The translations under genes and the position numbers were made by a program. Of a stretch of 64,000 nucleotides of DNA, positions 4,324 through 19,731 are shown in pieces. Under the pieces are notes generated by a model. That model was not told the DNA's origin, made no database searches, and was given only the letters and a program-made list of their open reading frames with translations. Position 1 is the stretch's first letter; each line of letters opens with the position of its first letter. Source of the stretch: a virus; the IMG/VR virus record IMGVR_UViG_3300043788_000040, positions 64,001-128,000 of that record. The stretch is one strand, 5' to 3'.

Positions 4324-4398
4324 ATGACAAACCTTACCCTATCCCTGACCTTGTATAGCCTGCTTAGCGGGCTTCACGGCGGTGTGTTCATCGGGTAA
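4324..4398 (+). CDS. Leu-rich attenuator leader peptide MTNLTLSLTLYSLLSGLHGGVFIG
   Basis: 24 codons, 7 Leu (CTT x3, CTG x2, CTA, TTG) plus Tyr TAT; lies between promoter and terminator. Confidence 0.75.
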   Translation: MTNLTLSLTLYSLLSGLHGGVFIG

Positions 4399-4466: not shown

Positions 4467-4554
4467 GGAGGGGATGGCACAATGGCGTGCCAGCAGACTG
4501 TAAATCTGCCGACCCTTGCGGTCATGGTGGGTTCGATCCCCACCCTCTCCACCA
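4467..4554 (+). tRNA. tRNA-Tyr(GTA)
   Basis: GGAGGGG/CCTCTCC acceptor, GCAGA-CTGTAAA-TCTGC, long variable arm, TTCGATC T-loop, ACCA. Confidence 0.92.
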
Positions 4555-4569
4555 ATTTTGGAGCATCAA

Positions 4570-4800
4570 ATGAAAGTAACCCAGACGCACCTGATGAGGA
4601 AGACTGAGCAAGGCACCGAGGTCCACACGATATGCTGGCTCGATGTAAAGCCGAATGTGAAGGTTGGCTCAAGGGTGTCCTTAGAGGACTCGCCAAACGA
4701 GTGGTGGACTGTCTTGTCTCAGGGTGGGTTGCAAGACTCCTCAGAGATCAACCGGAAGTGGGGTCTGGACCTGCCGAAGACTCAACGGCTGGAAAGGTAA
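4570..4800 (+). CDS. Hypothetical protein
   Basis: GGAG RBS and ATG at 4570, 76 aa. Confidence 0.6.
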   Translation: MKVTQTHLMRKTEQGTEVHTICWLDVKPNVKVGSRVSLEDSPNEWWTVLSQGGLQDSSEINRKWGLDLPKTQRLER

Positions 4801-5091
4801 AGCGAAAGGGCATTGAGTCCGGCAAGGTCACGGTGTGCAAGCACTGCGACACGAAGCACCCCATGTACGCGAACGGGACGATTTGCTTCATGGCTTTCTT
4901 CTACATCTACGAGCGTGACTTGCTCTGGATGGCAAGTCACGACGGCACCGATGGCATATCGGGCTGGCGTGCGCTAGCGAATGATCTGGGGTTCAAGGAT
5001 GCAAAGATAGACGTGCCTTGGACATTCCCAGACGAGGGTCGTCTGATCCCGTACCGGAGGATCAAGGACGGCAAGTTTTTGAGCAAGTAAT

Positions 5092-5177
5092 GCGAGCGTG
5101 GCGGAATTGGCAGACGCAACAGGTCGAGAGCCTGTCGGTTAACAGCCATGGAGGTTCAAGTCCTCTCGCTCGCACCA
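5092..5177 (+). tRNA. tRNA-Leu(GAG), atypical anticodon loop (C33, A37)
   Basis: Leu-type D arm GTGGCGGAATTGGCAGACGC, ACAGG-TCGAGAG-CCTGT, T arm, ACCA. Confidence 0.85.
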
Positions 5178-5180
5178 AGA

Positions 5181-5291
5181 TTGTCGGGCTAATTCTGTGA
5201 AACGGATGTCGGCAGAACCCCCGGTGACGCGAGCCTAGCTGTGGCAGGCGAATTGACGCCAAGGCGCTTTGAGGCTGTGGTCGCCCGACAA
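5181..5291 (+). ncRNA. Structured inter-tRNA RNA
   Basis: Ends TTGTCGGGC / GCCCGACAA pair; fills the space between two tRNAs. Confidence 0.45.
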
Positions 5292-5298
5292 AGAATTT

Positions 5299-5385
5299 GC
5301 GGATATGGCGGAGTTGGCAGACGCGCTGGTCTCAGAAGCCAGTGGGGTAAAACCCGTGGAGGTTCGAGTCCTCTTATCCGCACCA
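5299..5385 (+). tRNA. tRNA-Leu(CAG) (A37)
   Basis: GCGGATA/TATCCGC, CTGGT-CTCAGAA-GCCAG, variable arm, ACCA. Confidence 0.93.
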
Positions 5386-5388
5386 AGT

Positions 5389-5534
5389 TTGAGAGCGTTG
5401 AGTGGGGGAACTGGCATACCCGGAGCGCCGTAAGGTGACTCCACGTCCCCGAATTGACGGGGGCTGCGGCGCAGCGTGGCGAAGGCAGTGCGGGTTCGAT
5501 TCCCGCCTCGGAAAGCTGCGACAACCGCTCTCAA
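5389..5534 (+). ncRNA. tRNA-like RNA lacking an anticodon
   Basis: TTGAGAGCG/CGCTCTCAA terminal stem, D-arm-like GGGGAACTGGCATACCC, GTAA-capped hairpin, GCGGG-TTCGATT-CCCGC T arm. Confidence 0.65.
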
Positions 5535-5538
5535 GAAT

Positions 5539-5663
5539 TTCGGGCGACTTCGTTGTTCATGACAGCGAAGCAGTGAGTAAGTGGCGGAATATGGCAGACG
5601 CGGCACTTCGGTGCTTGGATGCAAATCCTTGTGGGTTCGATTCCCACCGCTCCATCGCCCGAA
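5539..5663 (+). ncRNA. tRNA-Leu-like RNA with UUCG hairpin in place of the anticodon arm
   Basis: TTCGGGCGA/TCGCCCGAA ends; GTGGCGGAATATGGCAGACGC D arm; GCAC-TTCG-GTGC; GGAT-GCAA-ATCC; GTGGG-TTCGATT-CCCAC. Confidence 0.7.
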
Positions 5664-5679
5664 CGCGTATTGAGGTCTT

Positions 5680-6066
5680 ATGGCGAAGTTTGAAGACCAT
5701 TGCAAGGACTGTGAACGCATCCTCGGCAACAAGCGCGAGGACGTGAACCGCTGGATGGACGAGCTTTTCAAGCAGTACGGACCTCGTCATCGTAGGCATC
5801 GTCACTGCTGGCACGGGGTGCGCACGGCGCTCAAGTTGTTTGGTATTGAGGGTGCGAAAGCTGCTATCATCCATATCGTGCGCGACTGTGGCGAGGTGCC
5901 GAGCCAGCGCACTTACGACGAGACGGCGCTGGGTGGCGGTGGAATTGTCATCGCACCGGAGTACACGTACTCAGACGGCGAAGCGGCGCAGAAGTCGTTC
6001 GCTGATGTAGTGAACAAAGAGTTTGAACGTGCTGCTGGGATAATTGGTAAGGACTGGCAGCAATAA
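5680..6066 (+). CDS. Hypothetical protein, His/Cys-rich
   Basis: GAGG RBS; HCKDC and HRRHRH motifs. Confidence 0.7.
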   Translation: MAKFEDHCKDCERILGNKREDVNRWMDELFKQYGPRHRRHRHCWHGVRTALKLFGIEGAKAAIIHIVRDCGEVPSQRTYDETALGGGGIVIAPEYTYSDGEAAQKSFADVVNKEFERAAGIIGKDWQQ

Positions 6067-6152
6067 GCGCGAGTGGCGGAATGGCAGACGCACTAGCTTG
6101 AGGTGCTAGCGGTGGAAACATCGTGGAGGTTCGACTCCTCTCTCGCGCACCA
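6067..6152 (+). tRNA. tRNA-Leu(GAG), canonical
   Basis: CTAGC-TTGAGGT-GCTAG, G37, ACCA. Confidence 0.95.
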
Positions 6153-6157
6153 AATTT

Positions 6158-6296
6158 GGGGGAATAGCATTGTGGAATGCGCCGGGGGTAACCCGGAGAA
6201 GTCGGTTCGACTCCGACTCTATATTCGGCAGTTGCGTTGTTCCCGACCGGATTGATTCCGGCTCGCGGTGAGCAGAGGGCGATACTTCCCCCACCA
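6158..6296 (+). ncRNA. CCA-ended tRNA-like RNA, no anticodon loop, insertion after T arm
   Basis: GGGGGAA/TTCCCCC-ACCA 7-bp acceptor; D-like GCATT/AATGC; CCGGG-GGTAA-CCCGG; GTCGG-TTCGACT-CCGAC. Confidence 0.7.
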
Positions 6297-6303
6297 AGTT
6301 AGG

Positions 6304-6397
6304 GGAAGCTCCGTTGTGCTGTCGGTTCGACTCCGACGACGTAGGGAAGGGCAAGCCGTGTAGACGGCCCGATTCTCGGAGAGGCACAACGACTTCC
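6304..6397 (+). ncRNA. T-loop-containing structured RNA
   Basis: GGAAG/CTTCC and CGTTGTGCT/GGCACAACG stems; same GTCGGTTCGACTCCGAC T arm as the previous element. Confidence 0.55.
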
Positions 6398-6405
6398 ATA
6401 AGTTT

Positions 6406-6491
6406 GCGGCTGTGGCGGAATTGGCAGACGCGCTAGCCTTAGGAGCTAGTGGCTAATAACCGTGGGGGTTCGAGTCCCTCCAGCCGCACCA
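6406..6491 (+). tRNA. tRNA-Leu(TAG)
   Basis: CTAGC-CTTAGGA-GCTAG, ACCA. Confidence 0.95.
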
Positions 6492-6496
6492 AGCTT

Positions 6497-6571
6497 TGGG
6501 CGCGGAATATGTCGCCGTGGCGGATCGTATGCCGACACGGTGCCCGCACATTCGGGGTAGCGCCCACACCA
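6497..6571 (+). ncRNA. tRNA-sized CCA-ended hairpin RNA
   Basis: TGGGCGC/GCGCCCA stem followed by CACCA; no D or T consensus. Confidence 0.45.
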
Positions 6572-6575
6572 GATT

Positions 6576-6662
6576 GCCGGGATGGCGGAATTGGCAGACG
6601 CGGCGGCCTCAAACACCGTTGCCTTAAAAAGCGTGCAGGTTCGACTCCTGTTCCCGGCACCA
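6576..6662 (+). tRNA. tRNA-Leu(CAA)
   Basis: GCCGGGA/TCCCGGC, loop CTCAAAC, ACCA. Confidence 0.93.
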
Positions 6663-8122: not shown

Positions 8123-8470
8123 ATGAGAATCCTGATTGCTGAGGATCATGAAGTTCTACGTGATCTACTCGCCAATTTATTGACAGCCAAGGGGCACACC
8201 GTCGTCGCCACGAAAGACGGCGAGGAAGCGCTTCGCACCTTCTACAAAGACGACGGCGGGTTTGACTACGTGATCACCGATTACCAGATGCCACGCAAGA
8301 ACGGCGTCGTGCTCATCATGGACATTCGCCGCATGAATCCTGCCCAAAAGTGCATCCTTGTCTCCGGCGATCCACCACAGATGACGGACATCATCCGCAA
8401 AGAAGCTGGCGAGTTTCCGATCCTGACGAAGCCCTACGGCACCGCCGATTTGTTAGAACTGCTCAAGTAA
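8123..8470 (+). CDS. Stand-alone response regulator receiver (CheY-like)
   Basis: ILIAED, ITDYQMP..NG, LVSG, LTKPY motifs. Confidence 0.92.
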   Translation: MRILIAEDHEVLRDLLANLLTAKGHTVVATKDGEEALRTFYKDDGGFDYVITDYQMPRKNGVVLIMDIRRMNPAQKCILVSGDPPQMTDIIRKEAGEFPILTKPYGTADLLELLK

Positions 8471-9531: not shown

Positions 9532-10008
9532 ATGAACAGGATCATCCAGTTCGCCTACGAGTACGACTTCCTTTCCAACTTTTACACCACCACTGTTCAC
9601 CTTGACGGCTTGGCATACGCCTCGGTGGAGCACGCATACCAAGCCGCCAAGACTCTCAACCCCGAGAAGCGTCTGATCTTCACGCTGGATAATCCGAGCC
9701 TGACAGCCCGGCAAGCCAAGAAGATAGGACAAAATCTCAAACTGCGCGATGACTGGGATAAGGTCAAAGTTCCGATCATGCGTGAGCTTTTGTTCCAGAA
9801 GTTCTCCGGTGACCTCAAGCAGAAGCTCCTCGCCACAGGGGATGCTTATCTGGAAGAGGGCAACTGGTGGCACGACATCTTCTGGGGCGTATGTCATCAC
9901 AAGATGGAAGGCAAGACCTGCCGTGAGCCGGAGCATAGGCCTTTCGGAGGGAACCACCTCGGGTACCTGCTAATGGACGTCCGTGCCTACCATCCTCCTG
10001 TGCTATAA
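9532..10008 (+). CDS. NADAR (YbiA-like) family protein
   Basis: FLSNFY, SVEHAYQAAK, LLATG..LEEGN..D.FWG, GGNHLGYLLMDVR. Confidence 0.92.
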   Translation: MNRIIQFAYEYDFLSNFYTTTVHLDGLAYASVEHAYQAAKTLNPEKRLIFTLDNPSLTARQAKKIGQNLKLRDDWDKVKVPIMRELLFQKFSGDLKQKLLATGDAYLEEGNWWHDIFWGVCHHKMEGKTCREPEHRPFGGNHLGYLLMDVRAYHPPVL

Positions 10009-10794: not shown

Positions 10795-10823
10795 TTGACA
10801 GTTTCCCGATTTCTTGGTACTAT
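10795..10823 (+). promoter_or_regulatory. sigma70-type promoter of Pro/Met/Phe tRNA array
   Basis: TTGACA-N17-TACTAT. Confidence 0.85.
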
Positions 10824-10876
10824 ATGTGAGTACAAACTAAGCGGCGAAGTAAGCCGCTCATAGGTGCTGCCTTCAA

Positions 10877-10951
10877 ATGAACACGATGCGACCATTTTCG
10901 GGATTCCGACCGTACACGCCACCCAGCGTGCGCGGGGTCGCAAGTCTCTGA
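10877..10951 (+). CDS. Attenuator leader peptide MNTMRPFSGFRPYTPPSVRGVASL
   Basis: 24 codons with Pro CCA/CCG/CCA/CCC, Phe TTT/TTC, Met x2; lies between promoter and terminator. Confidence 0.7.
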   Translation: MNTMRPFSGFRPYTPPSVRGVASL

Positions 10952-10961
10952 CTTAGGAGAC

Positions 10962-10993
10962 AGCCCCCGCGCTGCAAGGCGTCGGGGCTTTGT
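10962..10993 (+). terminator. Attenuator terminator hairpin
   Basis: AGCCCC-C-GCGCT-GCAA-GGCGT-C-GGGGCT plus short T tract; CCCCGCGC can instead pair with GCGCGGGG (10930-10937). Confidence 0.6.
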
Positions 10994-11051
10994 GGGTTAT
11001 GAAATTCCCAACAAAGAAGCAATTTTAGCCGCCCCGACTGTAGTTCTGTAT

Positions 11052-11139
11052 CGGGACGTAGCCTCGTAAATGGAAGCGATCTCGCTTTGGAAGCGAGAGC
11101 TTAACCGCCTTGGGAGTTCGAGTCTCCCCGTCCCGACCA
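11052..11139 (+). tRNA. tRNA-Pro(TGG), atypical (long variable region, A37, irregular D arm)
   Basis: CGGGACG/CGTCCCG-ACCA, CTCGC-TTTGGAA-GCGAG. Confidence 0.8.
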
Positions 11140-11168
11140 AGTTTCGTTCGTGAAGTCAACGAACATGT

Positions 11169-11245
11169 CAGGGCGTAGCGCAGTCTGGTAGCGCACTCGT
11201 TTCGGATACGAGGGGTCGCTGGTTCGAATCCAGTCGCCCTGACCA
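11169..11245 (+). tRNA. tRNA-Pro(CGG) (A37)
   Basis: CAGGGCG/CGCCCTG, CTCGT-TTCGGAT-ACGAG, ACCA. Confidence 0.93.
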
Positions 11246-11434
11246 AGTTTGAGAGGCCCGGTGGACGTACCCATCGGCGTAAGTGGGTGGTTACATCCAG
11301 CCTCGTTGAGTGTGAGGTGGAGCGACATACGGGAAGGCGGCTGGCGATCAGCCCCCGGAGTCGTGGTACCGCAAGGTCCATAGTGCTGCCTGCCTAACCG
11401 CTCGCCGGATGGCAGCACGAGTCGCCCATAATTT

Positions 11435-11511
11435 CGGGACGTAGCGAAGCCTGGTATCGCGCACCCTTGGGGTGGGTGAGGCCCCGAGTTCGAATCTCGG
11501 CGTCCCGACCA
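11435..11511 (+). tRNA. tRNA-Pro(GGG)
   Basis: CACCC-TTGGGGT-GGGTG, ACCA. Confidence 0.93.
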
Positions 11512-11639
11512 AATTTTAGTAGTCAAAGGAAGCAATGATGAACAAACAACGCGGCTGGTACACAAGGATTTCAATGTAAGGCACCCTCACGTCCGTTTCG
11601 GTCGGAGGGATACTATCCCTCTGGGAAAGGAGACGGACG

Positions 11640-11825
11640 ATGAAGGTCGTGAAGGTGAAGTTTAACGCCAAGATGTTTTTCGTGAAGTTTGTGTTTTTCG
11701 TTGTTATCGCTGTGGTTGTGATCGCGATCTTCAAGAAGATCGGCGAGTTGGTTACCGCAGCGAAGTTGGTTGAGATGGCAGGCGAGGCTGTAAGCGAGGC
11801 TTTGTCTGAGGCAATCGACGTTTAA
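11640..11825 (+). CDS. Small membrane peptide (61 aa) with sequestered RBS
   Basis: AGGAG RBS; hydrophobic FVFFVVIAVVVIAIF segment. Confidence 0.65.
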   Translation: MKVVKVKFNAKMFFVKFVFFVVIAVVVIAIFKKIGELVTAAKLVEMAGEAVSEALSEAIDV

Positions 11826-11829
11826 GTTT

Positions 11830-11932
11830 TGCAGGTTCGGATTGAGGGGCAGGGTTAATGGCCCTGCTCCGTCCCGTGTGGGTGACCCATTATCACCCTT
11901 AAGCGCCAGTGAAAAGCTGGAGCCTGCGACCA
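11830..11932 (+). ncRNA. CCA-ended cloverleaf-like RNA without T-loop consensus
   Basis: TGCAGGTTC/GAGCCTGCG-ACCA with three internal hairpins. Confidence 0.5.
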
Positions 11933-11936
11933 GTTT

Positions 11937-12008
11937 TGCGGGGAAGTGAATTGGATCACGTCAGCCTCATAAGCTGAAAACCCGGTTCGAATCCGGCGAC
12001 CGCAACCA
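11937..12008 (+). tRNA. Degenerate tRNA-Met(CAT)
   Basis: TCAGC-CTCATAA-GCTGA, TTCGAAT loop, CCGCA-ACCA; acceptor stem mismatches. Confidence 0.65.
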
Positions 12009-12080
12009 ATTTGGGCAGGTAGTGCCTCCGAACGGCGGGCACGTAAAGCGGAATCAACCGCCATCCTAGCCCGACATTTT

Positions 12081-12686
12081 ATGGAACAGTACCCAGAGAT
12101 ACCCGGCGCGAAGAAAGCTCCCCTCGGGGAGAAGTGCATCGCGTTCTACAAGTACGACGGCTCCAACCTCCGGTGGGAATGGAGTCCGAAGCGTGGCTGG
12201 TACAAGTTCGGCACACGGACGGAATTGTTTGCCCCGAACCATCCGCTGTGGGGGCAGGCGGTGCCGCTCTTCAACGCAGTCGGCGACGACATCGTCAAGC
12301 GGGTGCTGGCGAGTGACAAGAAGTTCCGCAACATTGAGCGGATCATAGCGTTCACGGAATTCTTCGGGCCTTCAAGCTTTGCCGGGACGCACGACGAGAA
12401 GGAACAGAAGGAACTCAGGCTCTTTGACGTTTGGCTGTACAAGAAAGGCAGGATGTCCCCCCGGTGGTTTGTGGAGACGTTCGGAGACGCACCCTATGCG
12501 GCTCAGGTGATCTACGAAGGCAACCTGAACATGGAGTTCATCCGCGACGTGCGGACTGGGAAGTATCCGGTGTGGGAAGGAGTCGTGGCGAAGGGCGACG
12601 ACTTCATGGTCAAGATCAAGACCGAGGCGTACATGCTGAAGCTGAAAGAAGTGTACGGTCTGAACTGGGAAAAGTTTTCGGAGTAA
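12081..12686 (+). CDS. ATP-dependent RNA ligase-like nucleotidyltransferase (Rnl2-like adenylation domain)
   Basis: Motifs KYDGSN (I), EFFG (III), LFDV (IIIa), EGVV (IV), KIK (V). Confidence 0.8.
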   Translation: MEQYPEIPGAKKAPLGEKCIAFYKYDGSNLRWEWSPKRGWYKFGTRTELFAPNHPLWGQAVPLFNAVGDDIVKRVLASDKKFRNIERIIAFTEFFGPSSFAGTHDEKEQKELRLFDVWLYKKGRMSPRWFVETFGDAPYAAQVIYEGNLNMEFIRDVRTGKYPVWEGVVAKGDDFMVKIKTEAYMLKLKEVYGLNWEKFSE

Positions 12687-12687
12687 A

Positions 12688-12764
12688 CGGGACGTAGCGT
12701 AGCCTGGTATCGCGCATGCTTCGGGAGCATGAGACCGTGGGTTCGAATCCCACCGTCCCGACCA
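12688..12764 (+). tRNA. tRNA-Pro(CGG), canonical G37
   Basis: CATGC-TTCGGGA-GCATG, ACCA. Confidence 0.95.
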
Positions 12765-12769
12765 AGCTT

Positions 12770-12958
12770 ATGAGCAACAAGGTCAATCATAGACGGAGTG
12801 GGAAAGTTCGGGCGCAGCGCAGCAGGCGTTCGTCTAATCTGGTCAACGACCCGCGCCGGGACATCGGCAGGAATCACAACGACCAACTTTGCCACTCGGA
12901 GTGGAAGAAGATCAAGACGAGAATTGAGCGTCGCAGGTTAAAGGGAGAAGGAAGATGA
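12770..12958 (+). CDS. Small basic protein
   Basis: Arg/Lys-rich 62 aa; TGA overlaps the ATG of the release factor. Confidence 0.5.
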   Translation: MSNKVNHRRSGKVRAQRSRRSSNLVNDPRRDIGRNHNDQLCHSEWKKIKTRIERRRLKGEGR

Positions 12959-13615
12959 TTCTGGAGATAAGAGCAGCGGAAGGAGGCGAGGACGCGAAGC
13001 TCCTCGTTGAAGACCAAGTCACCATCTATGCCCGTGTGGCAACACGGAGGGGTCTTTAGTTTTGAGATTGTGGAGAAGCGACCGGGTCTCGTCGTATTGA
13101 GGATCACGGGCGCTGGGGCGGAAAGCATACTCGCCAACGAATCGGGTGGTCACCGCTGGCAAAGGGTACCGCCGACCGAGAGGCGAGGCAGGGTGCAGAC
13201 GAGCACGATCACCGTCGCAACGTTCGCCGAGGTGGCGACGGAAGAGTTCAAGGTGAACCCCACTGACTTAGAATGGGACACCATGCGAAGCGGGGGCAAG
13301 GGCGGGCAGAACGTGAACAAGGTTGAGTCCTGCGTTCGTGTCACGCACAAGCCGACCGGGCTGGCAGTACGATGTGAGTCCGAGCGGTCGCAGTCACGCA
13401 ACAGGGCGACGGCGCTTGCTACCCTGACTGCCCGGCTGGCAGCAGCGCACCGGGAGCGGGAGCAGGGCGCACAGTCCGCCGACCGGAAGGCGCAGATCGG
13501 CACGGGACAGCGTGGGGACAAGCGTAGGACAATCCGTGAGAAGGACGGGGTCGTGACAGACCACATCCTAAACCGGAAATGGCGATACGCGGACTATGTA
13601 CGTGGGCTGTGGTAA
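12955..13615 (+). CDS. RF1-type peptide chain release factor lacking domain 1, expressed via +1 frameshift at CTT-TAG (13054-13059)
   Basis: Frame 0 MILEIRAAEGGEDAKLL...RRGL*; +1 frame HRWQRVPPTERRGRVQTS and SGGKGGQNVNK; GGAGG 3 nt before CTT. Confidence 0.85.
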
Positions 13616-13618
13616 GAT

Positions 13619-13696
13619 GGCGGTGTAGCTCAGTTGGCTAAGAGCGCTGGTCTCATAAACCAGAGGTCGCTGGTTCGATCCCAGCCACCGCTACCA
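13619..13696 (+). tRNA. tRNA-Met(CAT), elongator type (Ile2 not excluded)
   Basis: GGCGGTG/CACCGCT, CTGGT-CTCATAA-ACCAG, ACCA. Confidence 0.9.
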
Positions 13697-13783
13697 AATT
13701 TTGCAGTACAAGGAGACAACGATGGCTAACCTTAGCAAGACCACTCATGCCGCGTAAGGCGTGGGCGGTCAAAGGAGAACCAA

Positions 13784-14299
13784 ATGTTGTCAGAAATCAA
13801 AAAGGCGGTCTCGCTGTACTTTGAGCCGCTCAAGAAGCTGTTGCAGTTCCGCGTAAAGCGCTGGCATACGGCTATGCGCGGCTGGGACGAGAAGGACATC
13901 CGGGTCATCATCTGTCTTGAAGACTTGATCTGGTACTGGATGGTTTTGGAATGGCTGTTCTGGGACAATGGCACGTACATCTGCCACTGGCTCCATTACG
14001 TCCCGCTTCCAAAATTTATCTGCAACTGGGAGCGTCACTGGGACAAGGACGACCCGGAGTACTTCGCCAAGTTCGGTGATTGGTTCGGCGATGACTTCGG
14101 ATGCCTGTGGCACGTATGGGTCTGTGACCCGTTGTGCCAGTGGGTGTGGAAGCACAAGGATTTCCACAAGGCGTGGCCTCAGTGGGAATTGACGCTGGAA
14201 GAAGCTCGCAAGACGTTTGCCCATGATCCGGCCATTTATGAGTGGGTTGAAAAAGAGCTTGAACAGCACAAGAAGTGGGATGCAGAAAAGGCTGAATAG
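13784..14299 (+). CDS. Hypothetical Trp-rich protein
   Basis: AAGGAG RBS, 171 aa. Confidence 0.65.
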   Translation: MLSEIKKAVSLYFEPLKKLLQFRVKRWHTAMRGWDEKDIRVIICLEDLIWYWMVLEWLFWDNGTYICHWLHYVPLPKFICNWERHWDKDDPEYFAKFGDWFGDDFGCLWHVWVCDPLCQWVWKHKDFHKAWPQWELTLEEARKTFAHDPAIYEWVEKELEQHKKWDAEKAE

Positions 14300-14315
14300 C
14301 GGTATCATATACAGA

Positions 14316-14457
14316 GTGGGAACCCCTCACTAACCTGACGAGGGGAGTTACCTGAAGACGCGGGATGGCCCAAAAGCGCTAGTTACCCGGCAGTCTAGGC
14401 TCTTAATCGCGTAACGGCTGAATAGCCGGAGCCGATGGTAACGGGGTTCTCACGCCA
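14316..14457 (+). ncRNA. CCA-ended structured RNA
   Basis: 11-bp GTGGGAACCCC/GGGGTTCTCAC stem followed by GCCA. Confidence 0.55.
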
Positions 14458-14512
14458 AGTTTTCAGTCCCAGTCCTGTCTGACTGGGTGGTTGCGGGGGC
14501 AAAAATTTCTGT

Positions 14513-14589
14513 CGCGGGATGGAGCAGCCCGGAAGCTCGCTTGGCTCATAACCAAGAGGTCGGTGGTTCAAATCCACCTCCCGCTACCA
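14513..14589 (+). tRNA. Initiator tRNA-fMet(CAT)
   Basis: CGCGGGA start with C1/U72 mismatch, GAGCAGCCCGGAAGCTC D arm, CTCATAA, TTCAAAT, ACCA. Confidence 0.9.
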
Positions 14590-15011
14590 GTTCAACGCCC
14601 GTAGGCTACGAGCCGAGAAGCAGAAGGGCTAGCAGAGTCATACGACCTTATAGGACGGGAAAGCTCTGCAACAGATGTGGCACGGGAGAACCGATGCGGG
14701 GAAGTCGCCTGTAAGTTTCCGTGCCGTCGTTTTCGGTTCCGTGTTCGTTTAAGGCGCAAGCCGGGTTCGTCACGGATTAAAGTGGTGGTCCAACGGAGAC
14801 GCCCCACGCCGAAGTGAGTTAACGCTCTAATACGGGAGCCAATCAATAACTCCCGTGGGGGCAGGTAAGACGCATTCGCTGAGTAATCTCCGGTTATCCG
14901 GTTGGTGCAGCGGTGAAATCGCGAATCATAGCGTCTTCTTAAACCGCCAGCCATGAGGGTCCCTGACGTCGGGTGGTGCAGTACTTCATGGAGCAATTTG
15001 GCGGTACGAGT

Positions 15012-15153
15012 TTCGCAGCGGTGTATTGTACGGTTACTTCATGCAACCAGTAGGTCGCGGGTTCGAATCCCGTCATCCCAACGCTTTACGGGGTGTAGCT
15101 CAGTGGTAGAGCGACAGGTAAGAAAAACGCCGTGCATCTTTGTTCCCTGCGGA
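15012..15153 (+). ncRNA. YrlA-like Y RNA (circularly permuted tRNA-like domain)
   Basis: GCAG-C-GG/CC-CTGC bulged terminal helix; T arm, closed acceptor stem and D arm GCTCAGTGGTAGAGC in permuted order; motif shared with RNAs next to the TROVE gene. Confidence 0.75.
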
Positions 15154-15525
15154 TTAACTTTTCCTCGTTTAGCAAAACGAGGTGGCGCAGCGGAGAAGCT
15201 TTAGCGACTCCGTCAGCCGTTCTCGGACGTAAACCGAGTGGTGGAGGCGGGCACACTGTGCTCGCCCCTCAATGTCAGTTGAAGTACCGACGAGGCACGA
15301 AATGTGTGAACCGTTGACTCGGGAAAAAGACTGGCACCAAATTTGAAGATGTTGTCCCAGTCAAGCTGTCGGACTAAACTCTGGACCCGGAGTAATGGGC
15401 TTGAAAGAAGCCATGCCCTAATAAGGAAGGCTGACAGCAAAAGATTACAATGAAGCTCACGTCCCAACTCGACACGTTTACCACGCCGCTTAAGGCGGCG
15501 CAGTAAACCTATCTGTGTACTGTAC

Positions 15526-15601
15526 CCGGACGTAGCTGATGTGGACTTAGCGCCACCCTGAAAAAGTGGAGATGGGAGTTCGATTCTCCCCGTCCGGACC
15601 A
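15526..15601 (+). tRNA. tRNA with Phe anticodon (GAA) and Pro-like acceptor stem
   Basis: CCGGACG/CGTCCGG-ACCA, loop CTGAAAA. Confidence 0.8.
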
Positions 15602-15603
15602 AC

Positions 15604-15681
15604 GGGGAGCGAGCTAGTCCGGTGATTTAGCGTCCGCCTGAAGAGCGGAAGAATTCGGTTCGACTCCGAGGCTCCCCGCCA
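15604..15681 (+). tRNA. tRNA-Phe(GAA), atypical (G8, G37, G73)
   Basis: GGGGAGC/GCTCCCC-GCCA, TCCGC-CTGAAGA-GCGGA. Confidence 0.8.
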
Positions 15682-16042: not shown

Positions 16043-16138
16043 TGGTAGAGCACTCCTTGTTCTACCTTACCTTTGTTCCTGACAAATTGCAACGGCCTCA
16101 GTATTATATTGTCACGAGCACTAGAGGTCTCGTGAGAT

Positions 16139-16515: not shown

Positions 16516-19500
16516 ATGGACGAACTTTTCCCGCAAGAACAAACAACCGAAACGCCCGCCAAGAAGACACGCAAGCCGCGAGCACCCAAGGCTGAAAAGC
16601 CGAAGAAGGTGAAGCCCGCACGTGACATCCGAACTGTGTTCCGTGAGAAGCTCGCTGGTATAACCGTTGATGGCATCAAGAAGCCATGGATGGCGGAGAA
16701 GGTTTTCCGCTTGGTCACAACGGCGGAGGAGCTTGAGGCATGGGCGGACGGCATTCTAGCCGACACGTCTAGGCACCACGCTTGGGCAGGCAACACTTGC
16801 CCTGTCATTGCAGTTGACACCGAAACGACCAGTCTAGACACCCGCATCTTCACCGACATCAAGCAAGACTCAGATGGTAACTGGTACCTAGTTTATGAAG
16901 TCAAGACTGAGATCGCCGGGGTCTGCCTGTCTGCTGACGGTATTGAGGGGCTGTACATTCCGGTCAACCACGAAAAGGGCGTGAACGTTCCCCGTGCTGA
17001 CGTAGCACGAATCCTCCAGAGGCTCTTTGATAAGTCCCACCTGATTTTCTACAACGGAAAATTTGACCGTGAGGTCATGAAGATCACGCTGGGCATGACG
17101 TTCCGTGGCTACCCCCACTTTGAAGACGTCCAAGTTTTGAACTACATCAACGACCCGAAGGCTGACTTCGGCGACAAGGCAAGCTTTCAAGGCGGTGCGG
17201 AGGGGCTGAAGAAACTCTCCGAACGAGTACTCGGAATTGAACAGATTGAAATTGACGAGGTCGCTAAGGTTCGCTGCCACGTCTGGAACAATGAAACACA
17301 GAAGAACACGCTGAAGCAGAAGGTCGTCCCGTTCACTTGGATTCCACCCGACATCGCTTTGTGGTACGCCGCAGCCGACGCGATATGCACGTGGCTCTTG
17401 TGGAGCCGCATGAAGGACTTGGCACGAAGCCGCAAGCTGGTTCACAGGATTGACCATGAGCTTGTTGATTCGCTCGCATACGTTGAACGCCAGCGCTTCC
17501 TCGTTGACGTGGACCGCCAACACCGCACCGCTCGCTGGCATGGGCGCACACTTGCGGAATTGAAGGCGAAGCTGGTGAAGCTTGCCGAGGCGGCTGGCTG
17601 GACGCAGGAGTTCAATCCTGGTTCCCCTCCGCAACTTGCCAAGTTGCTGTTCACCATGATGGGCTTCACGTCTACCATCACCACCGACAGCGGTGCGAAG
17701 TCTACCAACAAGGAGACGCTGACGGAGCTTGTCAAGGATCACCCGGATAACGAGTTTCTGAAGGCGCTTCAGGACTACCGTGAGCTTGCAGCGCTGCACC
17801 CGGACAACTTGCGCTACGACCCGAAGGACAACTCGGCGAGAATCTACCTCAAGCAGAACGTCGTCGCCGGGGGACGCCTCTCGGGCGGTGGTGGAGAGTT
17901 TGAGAAGGACGGCGGGCTGGAATGGAACCCGCAGGGCGTCAAGAAGCTGGAGAAGGAAGACTTCTGGCGTGTGTACGGCCACGTGTTGGAGCCGGACTCT
18001 GTGGAAGCGTACGACATTGAAGAGCATGATGAGAGTGAGCTTCACCCGTCCTGCTTCGTTGAGGAAAGAGGAGTCAAGACGAAGGCTCCCGGCATCATCA
18101 AGAACCACATCGGTCTGTACCAAGACTATGCGATCTGCCTCGTGCCCGGCTGCAAGACCTGTAGGGACAGGTTCGGTCTTCTGATTGAAGACACGTCGCT
18201 GGATGCGAATCAAGTTGTCAACCTCCGCGTGCTGATGACTGCGCTCAAGGGCTGGACGTTCTTCAGCATTGACTACTCAAACATTGAGATGCGTGCAATG
18301 GCGAACCTGTCCGGTGAGCCGAAGTACGTTCAGGAATTCATGACCGGAAGCGGCGACTTCCATGACCTGACTGCTAAGAACATCTTCCCGCAGTACAGCG
18401 ACCCGACGTCAAAGGACTACAAGTCCAAGACGCTGCGTGGCGTTGCCAAGATCATCAACTTCGCCATCAACTACGGCGGCACTGCTCATGCTATCTACAA
18501 GAACCTGATCAAGAAAGACCCGGCCATGACCATGAAAAGAGCCGAGGAACTGGTTGATAAGTATTGGGCGGGCGTGCCGGAGTTTAGGAAATGGTGCGAC
18601 GTCAAGCAGGCTCGGGCAAAGAATGACTTCGTGACGGAGACCGCTACGGGGCGTGTGATTGACTTCAAGTCGGCGATGGAGCATGAGCACATCCACACAC
18701 CGACGCAGCAGGAAAAGGCGCTCCTGAAAAAGTACTACGACTACAAGCGTGAAGCCAAGGCTGCGAAGGAACGTGGTGACAAGGAAGTTGAGCAGTCGTA
18801 CCAGAACGCAGGAGACAGGCTGTGGAAGAACCCGGAGACGGGCGTCCGCAACGCTATTGACTACAACCAGTTCATCGGTAAGGCGCAGCGCGTGGCGGTC
18901 AACACTCCGGTGCAGGGACTCTGCGGCGACTTCATGCGCATCTCCATCAACCGCATCAAGAAGTGGGTTGAAAAAGACCCGGACGTTCAAAGAGTGTTCC
19001 GTTTCCACGGCTCTGTCCACGACGAAATTGACGTGTCCATCAAGAATGAGTATGTGCCGTTCATTCTGCCACGTCTCACACGCTGGATGAAGCTGCGCAA
19101 GTACCACGAGAGTATGCAGTGGCCCGTTCCCATTGAGTGCGATGCGGAATATGGTCGTAGCTGGGATGTGGACTGGAGCATCAACAAGGTCGGGTACACG
19201 TACATTGACGGTCTTGAGACCTACGTGCCTGACGTGTTCAACTCGGTCACGATCAACAATCTGTACAAGGCTATCGCCTCTGGCGACGAGACGAAACGTG
19301 AGAAGGCTAAGGGCTACCTTCAGCAGTCACTTCATCCACGTGCCTTTGAGTCCACGAAAACCCTGTTCAAATCGCAGGACAGGAAAGAAATCCAGAACCA
19401 GCTTATCGCCGTGCTCCAGCTTCACGAGTACTGGACGATTGATCACACGCCAGACGGAGACGACGGTGACAAGAGTCTTGAGACGCTGGCACAGTACGAG

Positions 19501-19731
19501 GAACGCATGGGCATCAGCGCACGTGATCCGCTCTGCCCGGAGTTCGGGTACATGGGGCCGATTCCGCTGGACAACCCGAATGTGATCCGCCCGGAACCGA
19601 ATCTGCTTGACGGACCAGTCGGCGAGATTACGACCCCGGAAACTTCCGAACCGCAAACGGAAGAAACTGCTTGGGTTGAGACTTCTCTTGACGATCCGCA
19701 GGCCTTCCTGACGCATAAAGTAGGAGCGTAG
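16516..19731 (+). CDS. DNA polymerase family A with 3'-5' exonuclease
   Basis: VDTET, YNGKFD, YAAADA exonuclease motifs; DYSNIEMR (A), KIINFAINYG (B), VHDEI (C). Confidence 0.97.
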   Translation: MDELFPQEQTTETPAKKTRKPRAPKAEKPKKVKPARDIRTVFREKLAGITVDGIKKPWMAEKVFRLVTTAEELEAWADGILADTSRHHAWAGNTCPVIAVDTETTSLDTRIFTDIKQDSDGNWYLVYEVKTEIAGVCLSADGIEGLYIPVNHEKGVNVPRADVARILQRLFDKSHLIFYNGKFDREVMKITLGMTFRGYPHFEDVQVLNYINDPKADFGDKASFQGGAEGLKKLSERVLGIEQIEIDEVAKVRCHVWNNETQKNTLKQKVVPFTWIPPDIALWYAAADAICTWLLWSRMKDLARSRKLVHRIDHELVDSLAYVERQRFLVDVDRQHRTARWHGRTLAELKAKLVKLAEAAGWTQEFNPGSPPQLAKLLFTMMGFTSTITTDSGAKSTNKETLTELVKDHPDNEFLKALQDYRELAALHPDNLRYDPKDNSARIYLKQNVVAGGRLSGGGGEFEKDGGLEWNPQGVKKLEKEDFWRVYGHVLEPDSVEAYDIEEHDESELHPSCFVEERGVKTKAPGIIKNHIGLYQDYAICLVPGCKTCRDRFGLLIEDTSLDANQVVNLRVLMTALKGWTFFSIDYSNIEMRAMANLSGEPKYVQEFMTGSGDFHDLTAKNIFPQYSDPTSKDYKSKTLRGVAKIINFAINYGGTAHAIYKNLIKKDPAMTMKRAEELVDKYWAGVPEFRKWCDVKQARAKNDFVTETATGRVIDFKSAMEHEHIHTPTQQEKALLKKYYDYKREAKAAKERGDKEVEQSYQNAGDRLWKNPETGVRNAIDYNQFIGKAQRVAVNTPVQGLCGDFMRISINRIKKWVEKDPDVQRVFRFHGSVHDEIDVSIKNEYVPFILPRLTRWMKLRKYHESMQWPVPIECDAEYGRSWDVDWSINKVGYTYIDGLETYVPDVFNSVTINNLYKAIASGDETKREKAKGYLQQSLHPRAFESTKTLFKSQDRKEIQNQLIAVLQLHEYWTIDHTPDGDDGDKSLETLAQYEERMGISARDPLCPEFGYMGPIPLDNPNVIRPEPNLLDGPVGEITTPETSEPQTEETAWVETSLDDPQAFLTHKVGA

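Follow-up and report, generated by a model that had tools for sequence, protein, structure and literature searches.

A putative ribosome-gated leader RNA upstream of a Pro/Met/Phe tRNA unit in a predicted giant phage

The Pro/Met/Phe tRNA unit of the viral genome described here is preceded by a promoter-proximal leader, which combines a 24-codon open reading frame with a series of mutually exclusive RNA helices. With a probability of roughly 0.7, the comparative evidence from the leader and its relatives suggests that it is a ribosome-mediated leader-peptide RNA switch, which would couple the output of the unit to the decoding speed of Pro, Met and Phe codons. Computed here were the conserved frame, the helices with their covariation, the spacing of the elements and the codon match, and from them we infer the translation of the leader, the stalling of the ribosome and both outputs of the switch.

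The sequence analyzed (hereafter the window, 64,000 nucleotides) covers bases 64001-128000 of a 170,563-bp IMG/VR viral contig (IMGVR_UViG_3300043788_000040), which is estimated to be 54% complete and is therefore assigned to a giant phage. The contig carries 31 tRNA genes arranged in three blocks that are sorted by amino acid (Table 1). A family A DNA polymerase gene (16516-19731) is located downstream of the Pro/Met/Phe array, and the nearest cultured phage according to this polymerase is Tunturiibacter phage Tunturi_5 (309 kb, 44% identity), which infects an acidobacterial host from tundra soil. Because of this cultured relative, and because the relatives come from soil and peat metagenomes, an acidobacterial host might be suggested for the window phage as a weak inference only. 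A pattern scan of 185,579 prokaryote genomes returned no leader match and thus no lead to a host or prophage. In addition, a megablast comparison of the array with cultured phages gave tRNA-sized matches only, and the upstream 130-aa protein, when used as a query, retrieved no relatives. Genes for a stand-alone response-regulator receiver domain and for a NADAR domain (window 8123-8470 and 9532-10008, respectively) are located just 5' of the leader promoter.

As for the sorting of the tRNA blocks, which was observed in the three blocks of the contig and in arrays L115-L119 of the 463-kb relative G001, one block serves all GNN codons plus Cys, while others are devoted to Ser only, to Ile/Thr/Gln, and so on. 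The make-up of the blocks is largely kept between relatives with only ~55% polymerase identity.

Table 1. Features of the leader, the downstream unit and the sibling leaders. Positions refer to the window unless another sequence is named.
Feature	Coordinates	Strand	Remarks
Sigma-70-type promoter	10795..10823	+	TTGACA, 17-nt spacer, TACTAT; 10/12 consensus matches, extended -10
-35 box	10795-10800	+	TTGACA
Extended -10	10815-10816	+	TG in spacer
-10 box	10818-10823	+	TACTAT
5'-proximal transcript hairpin	10840..10858	+	sequence varies among relatives, hairpin usually present
Shine-Dalgarno-like box	10862..10866	+	AGGTG, 10 nt before start codon
Leader ORF, 24 codons	10877..10951	+	22-25 codons in 21/21 relatives
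Segment 0	10910..10919	+	pairs with segment 1; covariation
Segment 1	10926..10937	+	codons 17-21; pairs with segment 0 or segment 2
Stop-codon hairpin	10944..10961	+	TGA (10949-10951) at 5' edge of loop; nested inside helix 1:2
Segment 2	10962..10972	+	pairs with segment 1 ("on" helix) or segment 3 ("off" hairpin)
Segment 3	10978..10989	+	3' arm of off hairpin 10962-10989; alternative partner segment 4
Long inner hairpin	10988..11016	+	conserved loop motif; enclosed by helix 3:4
Weak U tract after off hairpin	10990..10998	+	three proximal U counting last stem base, then G-rich
Segment 4	11031..11038	+	pairs with segment 3 (10981-10988); resembles tRNA-Pro 3' acceptor strand
First tRNA of the unit, tRNA-Pro(UGG)	11052..11139	+	unusually long, 88 nt; Rfam tRNA 40 bits
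Rest of the unit	11169..15681	+	tRNA-Pro(CGG, GGG, CGG), three CAT tRNAs, two tRNA-Phe(GAA), five ORFs
Pro/Met/Phe tRNA block	window 11052-15681
Tyr/Leu tRNA block	window 4467-6662
Val/Ala/Asp/Cys/Gly/Glu tRNA block	genome 30590-33571
Sibling leader (Tyr/Leu), own genome	window 4324-4398
Sibling leader, own genome	30385-30525
Sibling leader, G001	L115:1223-1303
Sibling leader, G001	L116:1043-1141
Sibling leader, G001	L117:2832-2927	minus
Sibling leader, G001	L118:857-988
Sibling leader, G001	L119:646-723
Sibling leader, Tunturi_5	L121:857-955		unannotated
Sibling leader, Tunturi_5	L121:8923-9036		unannotated
Sibling leader, Tunturi_5	L121:21274-21423 (PP885688.1 251573-251722)		annotated hypothetical protein gp308

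A preliminary description of this stretch, made from the sequence alone, had proposed an attenuator matched to the tRNA array. The promoter that it placed upstream was recovered at the same position, together with its extended -10 element. Comparable promoters are present in most leader homologs; taken alone, a promoter-like match is not above chance (7 found vs 5.5 expected in 13.5 kb). A short ORF with a start signal follows just 3' of the promoter, and those relatives that possess a 5' UTR carry a purine-rich box 10-14 nt 5' of the ATG. In five or six relatives, including the divergent form L011, the -10 box ends 6-9 nt before the ATG, so the message would be leaderless in them. The region 10825-11051 folds better than 200 out of 200 shuffled sequences (z -3.4).

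The unit begins with a tRNA-Pro(UGG), which was missed by the whole-window Rfam gathering run and was recovered in a local search. In this tRNA the D region is enlarged, the anticodon stem has 6 bp and the variable region 12 nt, and its unusual length (87-90 nt) is kept in L002, L004, L010 and most leader homologs. The set of downstream tRNAs given earlier, namely Pro(TGG, CGG twice, GGG), three with the anticodon CAT and two with GAA, was found to be correct. A release factor and an RNA ligase had also been placed in the array, and the former is borne out by an RF-1 domain gene embedded there (13007-13615, E 1.2e-32), while the RNA-ligase-like gene (12081-12686) shows a weak match only (PHROG 548, E 1.2e-5). 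Because a consensus scan found no further promoter-like site between 10824 and 16079, and because a terminator-like site follows the array at 16044-16066, the leader appears to head a single 5-kb unit made up of the tRNAs and the five embedded ORFs.

Array L117 of G001 (G001:C1:234500-240500, minus strand) possesses three tandem tRNAs with the anticodon CUA, i.e., amber suppressors, at about 1436-1760 of the reverse complement. As well, some leaders of the Pro/Met/Phe-leader family end in a TAG stop. The CUA tRNAs in G001 and the short RF-1-domain gene in the window array give a hint of altered TAG reading in this clade.

The leader is not a peculiarity of one contig. Loci were gathered via the polymerase gene and subsequently by pattern scans of viral and metagenome contigs, which led to about 21 distinct sequences plus one divergent form (L011), all of them upstream of tRNA-Pro. 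The loci found via the polymerase keep a Pro/Met/Phe array 5' of that gene, and five of them carry a recognizable leader before the first tRNA-Pro; L006 has the array with no recognizable leader of this family, and no tRNAs were found near the polymerase in L007, L008 and L013. A tRNA-Pro, mostly UGG, starts 95-194 nt after the pattern in 20 of the 21 sequences, the remaining one being truncated, and the other metagenome pattern matches (out of 91) are chance hits inside genes. Since so many distinct relatives, L011 among them, keep the promoter-ORF-switch layout before tRNA-Pro, the unit is not a product of chance. No Rfam family was assigned to the leader at E up to 10, where only the tRNA itself and one sub-threshold sRNA model (14.2 bits vs a cut-off of 41) appeared.

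Within the leader RNA, the proposed antiterminator strand GCGCGGGG (10930-10937) and its complement CCCCGCGC (10965-10972), which lies inside the hairpin 10962-10989, are present as previously described, and both the proposed antiterminator (helix 1:2) and the competing hairpin (helix 2:3) are conserved with compensatory changes. Helix 1:2 (10930-10937 with 10965-10972) is paired in 100% of the cells, and four of its pairs have changed on both sides. Helix 2:3 (10962-10972 with 10978-10989) reaches 90.5%, with the shortfall arising because the fused forms (e.g., L002 and L010) are misaligned. Upstream of these, helix 0:1 (10910-10919 with 10926-10935; -14.3 kcal/mol) is paired in 96.7% of the cells and covaries at two pairs. 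The three helices share strands and are mutually exclusive, and their pairing is far above that of slid-partner controls; RNAalifold alone selects helix 1:2. A single column of segment 2 changes in concert with two partners, one in segment 1 and the other in segment 3. Moreover, in L002, segments 1 and 2 and the acceptor strand of the tRNA itself have all shifted together. A fourth helix, 3:4 (10981-10988 with 11031-11038), also covaries and is formed in 17 of 17 long forms at -14 to -20 kcal/mol. Segment 4 can pair weakly with the first bases of the tRNA as well (helix 4:5, -7.6 kcal/mol vs -36 for the tRNA). The inner hairpin between segments 3 and 4 (10988-11016) bears a GAATTTCCCAAC-like loop motif, which is kept in most long-form relatives.

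The position of the stop codon relative to these segments is suggestive. In 19 of 19 relatives it is found at a hairpin loop, even where the stem sequences are unrelated from clade to clade. Segment 1 ends 11 nt 5' of the stop in 17 of 20 sequences, and segment 2 starts 12-19 nt 3' of it, with every value in this range used among the relatives. According to this spacing, a terminating ribosome would mask segment 1, the 5' strand of the antiterminator, and leave segment 2 free for the last hairpin. When the window leader was folded with a 30-nt stretch masked as the ribosome, the free RNA adopted helix 0:1, the stop hairpin and helix 2:3, with segment 4 on the first tRNA bases; masking at codon 12 gave helices 1:2 and 3:4, and masking at the stop gave helix 2:3. 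In the same simulation, the tRNA cloverleaf of the fused relative L010 was formed only in the stalled state, and the fused relative L002 showed no clear switch and is ambiguous.

The codons of the leader point to what might be sensed. Its content is as listed before, with two Met, four Pro (CCA, CCG, CCA, CCC), two Phe (TTT, TTC) and three Arg codons (CGA twice, CGC). Pro, Met and Phe account for 7 of the 23 non-initiator residues vs 2.6 expected (P 0.012); the enrichment of Thr and Arg equals that of Phe. Two stretches are invariant among the relatives, i.e., codons 4-6 (ATG CGA CCA) and 10-12 (TTY CGA CCG), and the invariant residues comprise Met, Pro, Phe, Pro, Pro and two Arg. L011 has an array without tRNA-Phe and a leader without a Phe codon. 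The array of one relative also holds a tRNA-Gln, and no Gln codon occurs in the leader.

The preliminary description had argued that two arrays with separately matched leaders exceed coincidence, and this holds in the own genome and in two others. A table of the three leaders by the three arrays of the own genome gave P 2.6e-5, and in each of the remaining two leaders the enrichment is confined to the amino acids of its own array. When leaders and arrays were permuted, the true assignment came out best among the 6 possible ones in the own genome, the 720 in G001 and the 6 in Tunturi_5. G001 possesses six arrays, each with a leader of its own kind, including a Ser leader with all six Ser codons and an Arg-containing leader with all four CGN codons. 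A scan of the rest of the genome, which had been suggested as a check, led to the leader before the Val/Ala/Asp/Cys/Gly/Glu block, and the early statement that the Pro/Met/Phe unit is unrelated in sequence to the Tyr/Leu leader was supported. Like its siblings, the Pro/Met/Phe leader has its own promoter and is spelled in the amino acids of the array that follows. Because every other tRNA array examined has a leader spelled in its own amino acids, the codon-sensing reading is well supported. Sibling leaders were examined in the own genome (two), in G001 (five) and in Tunturi_5 (three), and 10 out of 10 end in a canonical terminator. One of them, the leader annotated as gp308 in Tunturi_5, has 49 codons with Trp, Asp, Met, Lys, Val, Arg and Glu, lies directly 5' of an array of those tRNAs and is followed by a canonical terminator.

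It had been noted as a caveat that the Arg codons of the leader have no matching tRNA in the window. This caveat stands and has become sharper, since both CGA codons (10889-10891 and 10907-10909) are invariant even though CGA makes up 6% of the Arg codons in the long ORFs of the phage, and since the Arg tRNAs of the relative G001 reside in another array with its own leader. Each CGA directly precedes a Pro codon, which creates a repeated box, CGACC, identical to the final bases at the 3' end of a tRNA-Pro. The codon match leaves both invariant CGA codons unexplained, and a slow codon, a tRNA-Arg sensor or an RNA motif are possible explanations.

Taken as a leader-peptide switch, the region might work as follows. 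The host RNA polymerase would start at the promoter, and a ribosome would translate the 24-codon leader. A ribosome lingering on codons 4-12 (Met, Arg-CGA, Pro ... Phe, Arg-CGA, Pro) would cover segment 0, whereupon helix 1:2 would form, segment 4 would take up segment 3, and the unit would be expressed. Upon fast decoding, the ribosome would instead arrive at the stop and cover segment 1, which ends 11 nt upstream, and segment 2, which starts about 16 nt downstream of the stop, would pair with segment 3. When no translation takes place, helices 0:1 and 2:3 would form, so that "off" would be the default. The off hairpin of the window would act mainly as a weak, hairpin-dominated terminator near 10990-10998. 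A lock on the 5' strand of the tRNA might be an alternative or additional output, and the sole possible one where segment 3 is the tRNA itself.

It is in this output that the leader departs from its siblings. The last hairpin (10962-10989, -18.9 kcal/mol) had been designated a terminator with a weak U tract. The weakness was confirmed, as 4 of the first 8 bases after the hairpin are T (1-5 across the family) and the hairpin is absent from the terminator-like sites of the consensus scan. The designation itself was not supported as it stood: the combination of a GC-rich stem with a direct U tract was not found at this hairpin, the U tract is absent in most relatives, and the three proximal U are specific to the sub-clade of the window. 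A canonical terminator between leader and first tRNA, present in all ten sibling leaders, was not detected here. In L002, L010 and L015, tRNA-Pro itself supplies the 3' arm of the off hairpin with its 5' acceptor strand, and therefore the hairpin is not a terminator in these three.

RNA data bear on the same point. Soil metatranscriptomes from two different studies each contain one whole short contig of the leader, 152 nt (10878-11029) and 168 nt (10866-11033) in length with one mismatch each, and both span from about the start codon to segment 4, crossing the off hairpin and position 10990. The leader is thus present in RNA libraries with some readthrough of the off hairpin; such contigs cannot show ends, strand or regulation, and, as they cover the leader only, their ends and the missing flank and tRNA cover are not to be read as RNA ends, termination or processing. 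TRNA-sized RNA pieces at 11211-11246 and 11427-11512 were rejected, as they come from tRNAs of other organisms.

These observations agree with an alternative in which the sensor is the same and the output is not termination, and in which the off state would lock the first tRNA against folding or RNase P until a ribosome stalls. The lock could be direct where segment 3 is the tRNA 5' acceptor strand, and could run in the window via free segment 4 on the first tRNA bases. In the three relatives just named, segment 2 tracks the acceptor sequence of the tRNA, and the cloverleaf behavior of L010 in the simulation, the lack of a U tract in most of the family, the pairing of segment 4 in the free window RNA and the readthrough of 10990 all point the same way. 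However, in the window the off helix reaches the tRNA 5' acceptor strand only indirectly, through a segment 4 relay whose helix is weak relative to the tRNA and has not been preserved by compensatory changes in L043 and L106, the nearest relatives. Moreover, neither the conservation of Met and Phe codons nor the control of the rest of the 5-kb unit is accounted for by locking the first tRNA, and the sub-clade of the window does carry its three proximal U. This alternative is regarded as possible and clearly secondary to the leader-peptide switch in the form given above.

With regard to the window alone, weak termination at 10990-10998 is favored as the output, at somewhat short of even odds, because its own sub-clade carries proximal U, because sibling leaders of the same genome use termination, and because control of the first tRNA alone would leave the conserved Met and Phe codons without a rationale. 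A lock or relay on tRNA folding is held to be a minority prospect, and other or mixed outputs take up the rest. It might also be speculated, rather tentatively, that the leader is no transcription attenuator but a translation-gated RNA relay, in which alternating acceptor-strand mimics (segments 0-4) gate the folding and maturation of the first tRNA, and that it forms one arm of a phage-wide network in which each tRNA block is made on demand according to ribosome speed on its own codons.

A further alternative does without translation. The region might be an untranslated, structured 5' leader, such as a decayed tRNA-Pro duplicate serving processing or stability, and the frame would then be fortuitous. 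Third-position variability by codon position in the leader alignment showed no significant excess (P 0.25), and it was dropped as evidence of coding; because of this result, the peptide itself is without detectable selection. The lack of codon periodicity, which suits an untranslated leader and gives no positive support for coding, is also expected where selection acts on just a few codons and on the RNA structure. The G- and C-rich segments (1-4) are all similar to the acceptor strands of tRNA-Pro, so that shared ancestry could account for the persistence of some alternative pairings; segments 3 and 4 of the long forms have the appearance of a tRNA minihelix and of both acceptor strands from a tRNA-Pro copy that has decayed. 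In the CGACC boxes the nucleotides are conserved even at synonymous sites, an invariance that is partly ascertainment for the part of the homolog set gathered with a pattern fixing the two boxes; they are also present in the six loci found via the polymerase gene. As well, the Shine-Dalgarno-like boxes are weak and distant.

Against an untranslated leader, the start ATG is invariant among the relatives and pairs with nothing, and the in-frame stop occupies the same structural place in all of them, although TGA, TAG and TAA are all used. Indels inside the frame are 3 or 6 nt only, all multiples of three, vs any length just outside it. Furthermore, some promoters are placed for a leaderless start, and each of the ten sibling leaders examined is written in codons for the amino acids of its own array. 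An untranslated leader thus appears improbable. A second mini-frame of nine codons (10999-11028), which begins within the inner hairpin, was also considered and discarded, as it is not kept open in the relatives. The least probable alternative, according to which helix 3:4 and the following T/G-rich stretch would be the terminator, so that stalling shuts the unit and smooth translation opens it, might draw on U runs directly after segment 4 in L004, L090, L100 and L102, on the common T-rich tails after this segment and on the RNA contigs ending at 11029-11033 within it, but it is very doubtful, as its logic is the reverse of that in the sibling leaders and in the fused relatives, in which the tRNA is freed by stalling, the window tail has 4 T in 8 and the tail is not adjacent in most relatives, contig ends are not RNA ends, and tRNA genes commonly have U-rich 5' flanks.

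Discussions of phage tRNA genes usually treat them as constitutive supplements for codon usage or anti-defence. Here and in the sibling arrays, tRNA expression appears to be set by the decoding speed on the codons that those tRNAs serve, which would be product feedback on tRNA supply, a use of leader peptides that we did not find described for tRNA genes. In full-text literature searches, no description was found of tRNA genes or phage tRNA arrays under leader-peptide control, and neither leaders nor attenuation are mentioned in the Tunturi phage paper (PMC11924767). The proposal gives an explanation, open to testing, of when and why near-complete tRNA sets are deployed by giant phages, e.g., upon host tRNA depletion, and implies that the same sensor can work through something other than a canonical terminator, possibly tRNA folding. 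Cultured on Tunturiibacter and carrying matched leaders, Tunturi_5 opens the general idea to experiment.

Among known systems, the multivalent leader-peptide attenuators of enterobacterial amino-acid operons, such as ilvGMEDA (Ile/Leu/Val) and thr (Thr/Ile), to which trpL, hisL, leuL and pheL can be added, are comparable. The phage leader shares with the multivalent ones a promoter-proximal short ORF with regulatory codons for several amino acids, as well as exclusive helices, with the 5' arm of the last hairpin contested by a segment from the 3' end of the ORF that a terminating ribosome would mask. Unlike them, it precedes tRNA genes and a few translation-related ORFs rather than biosynthetic enzymes, so the product sensed would be decoding capacity itself. 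It also differs in that its last hairpin has no canonical U tract, its antiterminator encloses a nested hairpin with the stop codon in the loop, and helix 3:4 and a tRNA-like minihelix are added. As the defining feature, a terminator, was not found, the leader is not considered a full member of the attenuator family.

The pheM leader of the pheST (phenylalanyl-tRNA synthetase) operon, an attenuator sensing charged tRNA-Phe, is similar in that leader-peptide attenuation is applied to the translation apparatus and not to biosynthesis, but it has one specificity only, relies on a canonical terminator and regulates a synthetase, not tRNA genes. A Phe-rich leader before the tRNA-Phe genes of Escherichia coli, which was considered as a precedent, proved wrong, as pheV has a promoter directly before the tRNA and no ORF. 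T-box riboswitches are leader RNAs that sense tRNA charging with a terminator/antiterminator switch, bind the tRNA directly and have no ORF. Both they and the phage leader would read tRNA charging, but the phage leader has an ORF and gave no Rfam T-box match at E up to 10. The closest counterparts are the sibling leaders, which share the promoter type, the short ORF in the amino acids of the array and the position directly 5' of it. They differ in possessing strong GC hairpins and runs of 4-7 U, which the Pro/Met/Phe leader lacks, and the latter stands apart by an off hairpin that can be built from the tRNA itself and by having no sequence similarity to them. Taken together, the sensor half of the comparison is supported and the terminator half is not established, which suggests that the Pro/Met/Phe leader has the same kind of sensor as leader-peptide attenuators and possibly a different output.
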